DNA of 64,000 bases from a virus. The position numbers and the translations under genes are program-made. The notes beneath the pieces were generated by a model. That model was not told where the DNA came from. It saw only the letters and a list, made by a program, of their open reading frames with translations, and did no database searches. Every line of letters starts with the position of its first letter. Position 1 is the first letter of the stretch. Positions 32,341-33,956 of the stretch are shown here, one piece after another. The stretch covers positions 3,534 to 67,533 of the IMG/VR virus record IMGVR_UViG_3300049855_000345; one strand, given 5' to 3'.

Positions 32341-32373
32341 AAAAATGCCGAGAAGCTAGCCTGCTTCTCGGCA
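32341..32373 (-). terminator. rho-independent terminator closing the ncRNA
   Basis: Perfect 11-bp stem TGCCGAGAAGC/GCTTCTCGGCA followed by TTTTT. Confidence 0.85.
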
Positions 32374-32812
32374 ACCGTTTGTTTTGCCTTTTATAGGGCT
32401 GACTACTGTATGCGACACGCGAACGACATTTAAGCCCAACTCTTAGATTTATAACCAACGCCTTACTGTTAGGCCATCCTGATGCTCAATCGCTAAATCA
32501 TCGATATAACTTAGAAACTCAGCATCAGGAGGTGAAATTGCACCACCATCTTTGGTCGAGGGATATTGGGCGATAGAGATCGCGTTTAGTAGCCTTTCTG
32601 AGCTTAGGAGTAATAGTTTTAGTGATTGTTTTGCTGCGTCTGCCAGTTTCGCCACCCCCTGACAAAAGGCTCTATTTAGGAGCCCTTTGTCAGGGAGGCA
32701 GGACTCGAACCTGCACGGAGTTACCCACAAAACAAGATCGTCATATTGACGTTGAGACTAAGGTTTAGCTTGTCTCCTACCCCTCACAACATGTGAAGGG
32801 CGAAATCTTAGC
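32341..32812 (-). ncRNA. large structured RNA with two tandem circularly permuted tRNA-like domains (YrlA-like topology)
   Basis: Domains at 32626-32735 and 32453-32557 each read T-arm, capped acceptor stem, D-arm, closed by an extended anticodon-equivalent stem. Confidence 0.8.
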
Positions 32813-32817
32813 TGTAT

Positions 32818-33216
32818 TTACAGCTTGTGTGCGTGTTGCTTTAGAAAAGAGATCATGCGGTCAGCAGTCATATCGAACTCCGCATATCTGGACGCCACCT
32901 TTTCAGCTTCTTCTTGATTCATAATATGGTCTAGATATCCACGGCCGAAGTCAGCCAGTTTAGCCTTCCAGGCTATTACGCGTCTACTAAAACATTCCTC
33001 GGATTCGCGAGGATATCTATAGTCGCCTCTGTAGGGTTCGTCCAGATGAGCGGCTTCGAAGGAATCGCATCCGCCGCAGCTACCAAATTCGTAATGAACC
33101 CATCCGCGTTTTCCTTCAAATTCTACTAGCGCCCAAGACTCGCCCTGATAGCTTCCGAATTTTTCATGTTCGATTACACAAGCCCCGGCAGCCTCCATAG
33201 CTTGACAGTAACTCAT
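32818..33216 (-). CDS. conserved phage hypothetical protein
   Basis: GSYQG.....V, GSCGGCD motif. Confidence 0.7.
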   Translation of the reverse strand: MSYCQAMEAAGACVIEHEKFGSYQGESWALVEFEGKRGWVHYEFGSCGGCDSFEAAHLDEPYRGDYRYPRESEECFSRRVIAWKAKLADFGRGYLDHIMNQEEAEKVASRYAEFDMTADRMISFLKQHAHKL

Positions 33217-33218
33217 GT

Positions 33219-33956
33219 TCAGTTACCTAGGACGAATCCGAATAGAACCTTGGAGACTTCCTGCTTCTTCACATCGACCGAGTTGGCCTGCTCGCGAGCA
33301 AAAAGCACAGCATTCTTCAGCTTACGAACGCGGCCAAGAAGCGCCTCCTTTTTGGAGATAGAAAGAGCCCCAGAGTAGCGGATCTGCTCAAACTTACCAG
33401 TAACCTCATCTTCGTGGTACACATCGACTTGGGCCGGATGCTTATCTGTAGCTGCCGCTCGTACGTGGTTTTTCATCACCTTCTTGCTGCGGTTTTGCCA
33501 GGTCTTATCCGTGGCGTAGCACTGCTGGTTATCGTCGAACGACCACTTCTGCGACGCGTCTAGCGTCGGAAGTTTAGTAATGAAGGTCTCAACATCGTTG
33601 AGCTGCTTCTCCAGGAAAAGAAGGTAGGTAACAGGAACATGGCTAACCAGGACCTGGTTATCAACCACGATGTCAGCAAAAGCATTGCTGCTATTAGTAT
33701 AGTCCTTAGTCGCTGTCACATCCCAGAGGGGAGCAAGAGCATCGGCAAACTGCTTAAGCACATCGTCAGACTTCAACTGTACATGCTGGCGTTCATCTGG
33801 TAGGGTTTCACCGCCTTCAACAGATGGCGTATACGTACGAACGCGACCCTCATAAAGCTCCGGCTTCTGCGACTTCTGGTGAAGTGCGCTCACTGCCTCG
33901 TGGCTCTTATTCTTTTCGCCCTTTTCAATCGCCAGAATCTGATTTAGTTTTGTCAT
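33219..33956 (-). CDS. conserved coiled-coil protein (MTKLNQI.A.EKG family; recalled as DUF7873, unverified)
   Basis: KLNQILAIEKG, RTY.P..E.GETLP, ATKD.TN, VPVTYLLFLEKQL, LPTLD, ATDKHPAQV, SGA, AREQAN; strong AAGGAG SD. Confidence 0.8.
   Translation of the reverse strand: MTKLNQILAIEKGEKNKSHEAVSALHQKSQKPELYEGRVRTYTPSVEGGETLPDERQHVQLKSDDVLKQFADALAPLWDVTATKDYTNSSNAFADIVVDNQVLVSHVPVTYLLFLEKQLNDVETFITKLPTLDASQKWSFDDNQQCYATDKTWQNRSKKVMKNHVRAAATDKHPAQVDVYHEDEVTGKFEQIRYSGALSISKKEALLGRVRKLKNAVLFAREQANSVDVKKQEVSKVLFGFVLGN

Follow-up and report, generated by a model that had tools for sequence, protein, structure and literature searches.

A DUF7873 gene and an RNA with two tRNA-like heads probably form a conserved two-part unit of phages and bacteria

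In a 64,000-nucleotide stretch of viral DNA (positions 3,534 to 67,533 of IMG/VR virus record IMGVR_UViG_3300049855_000345; hereafter the window), the gene for a 245-amino-acid (aa) protein of the family DUF7873 lies upstream of a structured RNA of about 460 nucleotides (nt) that carries two tRNA-like heads. Comparison of this locus with its relatives in phages and bacterial chromosomes suggests that gene and RNA probably constitute a conserved two-part unit, most likely a ribonucleoprotein (RNP) that resembles those of Y RNAs and works independently of Ro60. A preliminary description of the locus, made from its sequence alone, had proposed that this protein rather than Ro60 is the partner of the RNA, and comparative genomics supports the association of the RNA with the DUF7873 family well: through the linkage of gene and RNA, through their co-occurrence where they are unlinked, and through the absence of genes for the Ro60 (TROVE) protein.

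To locate the RNA we used a strict finder. It requires a T stem of 5 bp whose loop reads [TG][TG]C[AG]ANN, then 7 nt as the 3' strand of an acceptor stem, a cap 3-120 nt long and, as the acceptor 5' strand, 7 nt that pair fully with the first seven; a D arm must follow after 2 nt. On the window it returned two modules, at 32714-32636 and 32547-32460 on the minus strand, the strand of every window feature described here. In each module the arms follow one another as in a circularly permuted tRNA (T arm, capped 7-bp acceptor stem, D arm), while a helix that extends into a long arm takes the place of the anticodon stem, with no anticodon. Module 1 was also recovered by R1, a covariance model built from 32 other loci only, with the window excluded (51.8 bits, E 1e-16); R1 gave no other strong match in the 64 kb and missed module 2, which is more divergent and whose T, acceptor and D columns all pair in alignment A5 (11 sequences including the window). 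The double tRNA mimic seen in the preliminary description is thereby borne out as two permuted modules. The stretch 32335-32830 folds with z = -7.9 relative to shuffles, and no credible open reading frame (ORF) is found in the ~460 nt of the RNA.

The linkage of gene and RNA is apparent in phages. By tblastn, 75 GenBank phage records from ten host-genus groups encode DUF7873, and one locus per group (L001-L010) was compared. An unannotated gap of ~280-700 nt lies 3' of the gene in all ten loci, several of which are situated within tRNA arrays, and the strict finder places two modules at 7/10 and one at 2/10. When R1 was run over the ten whole phage genomes, its best match fell downstream of DUF7873 in every case, the lower-scoring matches being junctions of tandem tRNA genes. 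Relatives are also encoded on 411 IMG/VR contigs, and counts were made on the best 80 of these. At least one strict module lies 1-1500 nt downstream on the same strand in 74/80, and two do so in 55/80; in total, 129 module matches are downstream, compared with 15 in other places on that strand and 2 on the opposite one. From gene to module the median offset is 108.5 nt, and successive modules are a median of 154 nt apart. R1 rescued two further IMG/VR loci (L085 and L043) and located the RNA of L021 on the opposite strand. Individual phage loci have features of their own. In Microcoleus phage My-WqHQDG (L006, 4837-6660), an IscB-type ORF and a HEARO RNA (Rfam, 129 bits) lie between the two modules, so that the RNA gene has been split by a mobile element. 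In Gordonia phage Keelan (L004, 5268-5513), an annotated hypothetical coding sequence, CDS 126, overlaps module 1 and arm 1 and is probably a mis-annotation.

The same arrangement is found in bacteria, where at least 482 genome stretches encode DUF7873 relatives; chromosomes carry the family at least as often as phages do. The best 80 bacterial loci comprise 70 from Streptomyces together with loci from Sorangium, Ktedonobacterales, a cyanobacterium, Planctomycetota, Deinococcota, Nocardia and an actinomycete metagenome-assembled genome (MAG). A module lies downstream in 77/80 of them and two modules in 62/80, with R1 adding L095 and L126. Because both 80-locus sets over-represent close relatives of the query, we also sampled genomes evenly. 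Among 101 evenly drawn Streptomyces genomes, 54 carry the gene, in 55 copies, and all 55 copies have an R1 match within 1.5 kb downstream (37 from a genome-wide search, 18/18 from a local search). In the phylum of G002 (Sorangium), 15/251 genomes match DUF7873; the RNA is downstream on the same strand of 9 of the 13 full-length copies and adjacent on the opposite strand of 3, which places it within about 400 nt in 12/13, the remaining copy having none in 620 nt of flank. In the phylum of G003 (a Ktedonobacterales MAG), 16/251 genomes match DUF7873. The preliminary description had stated that genes of this family are often followed by conserved non-coding stretches, and had proposed a search for permuted-tRNA models downstream of homologues; run at 1.5 kb, this check found the linkage, in the ten phages as in the IMG/VR, bacterial and Streptomyces sets. 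The highest of the inspected R1 matches outside the DUF7873 loci of Streptomyces, at six loci (52.9-62 bits; L173, L174, L194-L197), were rejected as tandem identical tRNA-Asn genes, which are a systematic false positive for any search for RNAs like the Y RNA YrlA. The many 57.3-bit, 81-nt R1 matches in Streptomyces were assumed to be tRNA dimers.

Several observations weigh against the reading of gene and RNA as a single RNP. Both 80-locus sets consist of the closest relatives of the query, with near-duplicates and the 70 Streptomyces loci. At L014, L015, L051, L096 and L219 the surroundings of the gene yielded no RNA. In L021, L220, L222 and L223 the RNA adjoins the gene on the opposite strand, in convergent or divergent orientation, so that co-transcription is not required. 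In the phylum of G003, 8 of the 16 genomes have no RNA within 1.5 kb of the gene. The DUF7873 protein itself is near-neutral in charge (pI 7.8), and no RNA-binding fold was recognised in it by fold and profile searches. Finally, the acceptor caps in the window lack CCA and continue as helices, so that tRNA-like processing cannot be general.

Five of the eight G003-phylum genomes without a neighbouring RNA were searched whole, and each carries a two-module RNA elsewhere, at 49-80 bits, between unrelated genes. Moreover, in a 150-genome sample of this phylum, the 10 genomes with an R1 match at E<=1e-15 are the same 10 that carry DUF7873, and the other 140 have neither gene nor RNA (Fisher p 8.6e-16, a value that overstates independence because the sampled genomes are related, and in this respect a further point on the negative side). 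In at least 5/10 of the positive genomes, gene and RNA are on different contigs. Nothing else in this analysis argues as strongly that gene and RNA work together as their co-occurrence without adjacency. As to the surroundings of the two partners in these genomes, the RNA stands alone between genes such as those for a glycosyltransferase and a CLC channel, far from DUF7873 (L233-L237, in G165, G328, G294, G234 and G270), and next after the DUF7873 gene come short repeats and an ADP-ribosylglycohydrolase-like ORF.

In the window, the whole RNA runs from a 5' hairpin to the T run of its terminator (32337..32801) and can be aligned with its relatives over the full length. Arm 1 is formed by a 5' strand (32750..32777) with GGAG and a conserved CAAGCT/hexamer tract, which is conserved in alignment A5 and in A4, an alignment of 24 family RNAs, and by a 3' strand (32598..32624) that reads CTAA..AACTATTA..CTCC..TAAGCTCAG. 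The asymmetric internal loops described previously are present here, with ACAAGCTAAACC opposite AACTATTA between GGAG/CTCC and TTAG/CTAA, and the GGAG/CTCC helix is predicted with covariation in the 11-sequence alignment. Arm 1 bears module 1 (32626..32736), which consists of an anticodon-stem analogue (32736-32728 with 32634-32626), a long variable arm (32727-32715), a T arm (32714-32698), a capped acceptor that continues as an 18-bp hairpin without CCA (32697-32655) and a D arm (32652-32636); its D arm and long variable arm are like those of tRNA-Leu. The 5' strand of arm 2 and module 2 together occupy 32454..32585, as ACGCGA, a TCTCTATCG loop, CCCAA and then the module identified by the strict finder, with its T arm at 32547-32531, capped acceptor at 32530-32477 and D arm at 32474-32460, the last being followed by TTGGT (32459-32454). 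The 3' strand of arm 2 (32417..32439) contributes TTGGG, a conserved TTAAATG loop (family consensus TTAAACG) and TCGCGT. The RNA closes with a terminal hairpin (32337..32373, stem 32373-32346) that has a conserved GGCTA-type loop and is followed by the T run of the terminator.

Across the family, 51 RNAs with short acceptor caps measure 389-424 nt over the two modules and what lies between them, with 95 nt of flank on either side included. Alignment A4 displays strong sequence conservation outside the heads: arm 1 has the consensus GAGCGCAAGCTGAAACTGA on its 5' strand and TCAGAYTCTCGCTCCAG on its 3' strand, arm 2 has a conserved GATCGAC opposite TTAAACG, and the terminal hairpin recurs with a GGATA/GGCTA loop. 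The most conserved primary-sequence motifs of the RNA are those in the long arms that bear the heads. RNAalifold applied to A4 recovered the six head helices as well as long-range arm helices with many compensatory changes (columns 266-271/410-415 and 279-287/391-399), and the arm helices were never a selection criterion of the strict finder; the window equivalents of the family arm 2 helices were read off the window sequence and the element coordinates. Covariation in the head helices is well above shuffled and slid controls, a count that is not independent because head pairing was the finder's selection criterion. After the acceptor 3' strand, the first two cap nucleotides are mostly A-C in module 1 and mostly T-C in module 2, and a full NCCA is present in 19/56 and 16/56 copies, respectively, among unique viral RNAs. 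No Rfam family reaches its gathering score in the window, where at E<=10 the RNA region yields only chance microRNA and small nucleolar RNA rows, or at the RNAs of relatives (10 phage loci and 9 bacterial loci).

The window clearly belongs to a large phage, whose 67.5-kb record is rated 17% complete; among sequencing runs, one DNA run is listed as a possible source of this DNA, and no RNA run. The genes around the locus are all on the minus strand, and the order is DUF7873 gene, 132-aa ORF, RNA and terminator. A terminator scan of the interval between the gene and that terminator found just two weak sites (33013-32996 and 32751-32739), which agrees with the earlier observation that no terminator separates gene from RNA. 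The 132-aa ORF, marked by the motif GSCGGCD (32818..33216), had been counted as part of the unit, and here the protein, the RNA and the terminator stand but the ORF does not. Its sole match is phrog_28969, tblastn found no homologues in all the other DUF7873 loci compared, and in L011, a 73% identical relative, the gene is followed directly by the RNA and then a DNA ligase; its homologues occur in 9 phage records, all in genera outside those carrying DUF7873. Since it is missing from L011 and the other loci, and its homologues lie in genera without DUF7873, comparison of loci indicates that the ORF is a lineage-specific insert outside the conserved unit. Gene-to-RNA distances above 400 nt, as in the window, are found in 8/74 viral loci.

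Neighbouring genes in the window encode an ATP-dependent DNA ligase, a Hen1-Pnkp-ligase fusion, an RlaP nucleotidyltransferase, SbcCD-like proteins, RecA and a topoisomerase. The fusion is a single-chain Hen1 methyltransferase joined to a Pnkp-type ligase domain (27632-30286) and the nucleotidyltransferase is of the RlaP family (18944-20029), so that RNA-repair genes lie within 15 kb of the tRNA-mimic RNA. In the DUF7873 leader (33957-33995), CTAA-type motifs stand 6 or 12 nt apart around the ribosome-binding site (GTCTAA..CTAAAAAGGAGACTTAA), and these CTAA/CTGA-type hexamers resemble the hexamer tracts of the RNA arms. By-eye inspection found comparable leader motifs in several phages and none in Streptomyces. 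The motifs may reflect autoregulation.

If gene and RNA do form an RNP, DUF7873 would bind the conserved internal loops of the RNA arms, with candidate binding sites in the arm loops (GATCGAC / TTAAACG) or in the CAAGCTGA tract. The tRNA-like heads could in turn engage factors that read tRNA on its acceptor/T-arm face. Candidates are RNase P, the CCA-adding enzyme and modification enzymes, and possibly also synthetases or tRNA-directed toxins. Because the heads are proposed to engage factors of this type, the particle might contribute to the quality control of tRNA or other RNA by acting as a tether or decoy, and the phage version might protect or service the tRNA pool during infection. Phage units are often found within tRNA gene arrays or near RNA-repair genes. 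A bolder version of this picture, which we put forward as speculative and on the whole doubtful, would make the pair a new class of tRNA-mimicking RNP, present in at least 7 bacterial phyla and many phage groups, in which the heads undergo tRNA-like maturation in many lineages (by RNase P, CCA addition and perhaps charging of the Leu-like head) and which acts in phage-host conflict as a decoy or repair platform for enzymes and toxins that read the acceptor end of tRNA, paralleling Y RNPs without a need for Ro60.

The DUF7873 gene (33219..33956) is preceded by a GGAG ribosome-binding site at 33970-33967, 10 nt before the ATG, as expected from the strong Shine-Dalgarno sequence noted at the outset. 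Its product matches Pfam DUF7873 (PF25283) over residues 1-243 of 245 (E 5.8e-92; 308.3 bits against a cut-off of 27) and has no PHROG match, and a protein search returned 2200 representative protein clusters for the family at E<=1e-3. An AlphaFold2 model (pLDDT 96.3, pTM 0.83) comprises four helices of ~25 residues each and an eight-stranded beta region with a long hairpin, which bears the nearly invariant motif AT.xHPAQ. The long helices of the preliminary description thus have a counterpart in the model, but its coiled coil does not: as modelled, DUF7873 is a helical bundle plus beta-sheet without a known fold match. Foldseek against the PDB gave no matches at E<=1e-3, and the Cas7-type chains in its top rows, with a TM of about 0.1, were treated as noise. 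VIA-align wide retrieved generic helical bundles only (best Z 7.7), the predicted viral structures of BFVD gave no matches at E<=1e-3, a profile search against PDB sequences reached a best E of 0.093, and ESM Atlas matches were DUF7873 clusters only. A homodimer prediction scored 0.41 against a mark of 0.42 and speaks neither for nor against a dimer.

These properties of the protein bear on the alternative that survives best, which we consider unlikely: that the pair is a conflict module (toxin-antitoxin-like, defence or counter-defence), with DUF7873 as an enzyme that the RNA neutralises, senses for or serves as a substrate. The nearly invariant polar residues of the family (H173, D183, E55, K159, R221 and N225) would suit an enzyme of this kind. 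So would a self-contained two-part unit without conserved protein neighbours (10 ORFs flanking 5 bacterial loci yielded none) that is present in phages and chromosomes alike, that is patchily spread, as in the 54/101 Streptomyces genomes and the 16/251 and 15/251 genomes of the two other phyla, and that at one locus adjoins a Type ISP restriction enzyme. However, the fold and profile searches, which did not include the padloc library, revealed no likeness to a toxin, nuclease or PADLOC-type fold, and the RNA, which lies 3' rather than 5' of the gene, does not have the make-up of a tandem-repeat antitoxin. A type III toxin-antitoxin system was rejected on the same grounds: the RNA follows the gene and, as judged by reading the sequence and alignment without a tandem-repeat tool, does not consist of identical units in tandem.

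A second possibility, which we regard as improbable, is that we are dealing with an ordinary Y RNA of the YrlA type, which acts together with the Ro60 of the host, DUF7873 being merely a frequent neighbour. In passages of Chen et al. 2014 (PMC4201824), the tRNA-like domain of Mycobacterium smegmatis YrlA is described as having the order T arm, loop-capped acceptor and D arm, which is also the order found here; the same passages report that this RNA is cut by RNase P and CCA-tailed in vivo, with its 7-bp acceptor stem as a main determinant of RNase P cleavage, and this processing is a precedent for the RNP favoured here. Furthermore, the YrlA family (RF02553) is the best Rfam match to the RNAs of DUF7873-linked relatives, and R1 cross-matches a true Rsr-linked YrlA pair. 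The latter belongs to Streptomyces G005, in which an Rsr/TROVE locus carries two tandem YrlA-type modules ~250 nt apart (L175, 2398-2478 and 2647-2721), 1.1 kb upstream of the TROVE gene; RF02553 scores them at 46 and 39.7 bits, so that this control likewise falls below the gathering score of 69. The relatives' RNAs score 27-38 bits against that same threshold, and the window has no match to RF02553 at E<=10.

The distribution of Ro60 also speaks against an ordinary Y RNA. No Ro60/TROVE gene was found in 10/10 phage genomes or in 3/6 DUF7873-bearing bacterial genomes, nor was a TROVE gene found in the record of the window, which is 17% complete, and in the 150 genomes discussed above the presence of the RNA equals that of DUF7873 exactly. 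G005 carries both an Rsr-YrlA and a DUF7873 locus, 73 kb apart. The Ro60-binding motif GNCGAAN0-1G is present outside the modules in 35/116 RNAs, at inconsistent positions, and the nearest string to it in the window, GGCGAAAC, lies inside D arm 1 and does not fit the motif. Given the sub-threshold RF02553 scores and the lack of TROVE in the ten phage genomes and in three of the six bacterial ones, the DUF7873-linked RNA is, on sequence evidence, a distant cousin of YrlA and not a member of its family, and Ro60 is not its usual neighbour.

It is very improbable that the RNA serves the DUF7873 mRNA in cis only, as a 3' element involved in stability, processing or termination and without a role in trans. 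Such an element would be expected where the RNA is found in most loci, on the same strand and directly 3' of the stop codon, at the median offset given above, and with no strong terminator between gene and RNA in the window. However, the RNA is on the opposite strand in the four loci listed earlier, unrelated ORFs or the IscB element separate it from the gene in the window, L005 and L006, and it is unlinked in 5/10 genomes of one phylum sample, a co-occurrence without adjacency that rules out a purely cis role. Least credible of all is the idea that the modules are genuine permuted or split tRNA genes processed into working tRNAs, since, for all their tRNA-like T, D and acceptor arms, the NCCA 3' of the acceptor 3' strand in some copies and the position of the unit inside tRNA arrays in several phages, they have no anticodon loop, their anticodon-stem analogue continues into long conserved arms, ARAGORN finds no tRNA or transfer-messenger RNA (tmRNA) gene in the window and the acceptor caps there are without CCA.

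The Ro60-independent RNP that we favour would extend a theme known from few systems. Mimicry of tRNA by non-coding RNAs is known mainly from tmRNA and Ro60-bound Y RNAs, and DUF7873 with its RNA would be a second, widespread tRNA-mimic system, in which the trick is used twice per RNA and with a different protein. As the same mimicry would be combined with a different protein, the pair offers an independent handle on the purpose of the YrlA-type tRNA-like domain. Likewise, since the pair is located in phage tRNA arrays and next to genes for RNA repair, whether it takes part in the contest over the tRNA pool can be tested directly, and standard laboratory phage-host pairs exist, for example with Gordonia, Arthrobacter, Klebsiella and Vibrio phages.

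GOLLD and ROOL are large structured phage-associated RNAs that are often found among phage tRNA genes, and in both respects the RNA described here is like them. To our knowledge, neither has a dedicated protein partner or is built from tRNA mimics, and no Rfam match to either was obtained in the window or at the loci of 19 relatives. With the two-piece (permuted) tmRNA and its partner SmpB, the RNA shares a T arm and acceptor 3' strand that precede the acceptor 5' strand, and the modules of relatives give weak partial matches to beta_tmRNA. It differs from tmRNA in having no tag reading frame, in its two heads with full D arms and in a partner that is not SmpB; neither ARAGORN nor Rfam finds a tmRNA in the window. 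The literature and RNA libraries searched contain no description of the DUF7873-RNA pair; passages of PMC10690425 give none either, with the reservation that its supplementary tables may list the RNA.

The closest comparison is with Ro60 (Rsr) and the YrlA/YrlB RNAs of the Mycobacterium smegmatis type (RF02553). From what the excerpts of PMC4201824 describe, the two systems have in common the order of T arm, capped acceptor and D arm and an acceptor stem of 7 bp. In addition, both RNAs end at the anticodon-stem position, both are encoded beside their protein partner, a putative one in the case of DUF7873, and both have tandem modules per transcript, two also being present at the Streptomyces Rsr locus L175. 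They differ in the partner, which would be the 245-aa DUF7873 protein here and a ~500-aa TROVE ring in the case of Y RNAs, and in the architecture of the RNA, which in the DUF7873-linked family is about 390-460 nt long and always has two heads, set on long arms with motifs of their own (GAGCGCAAGCTGA..., GATCGAC and TTAAACG).

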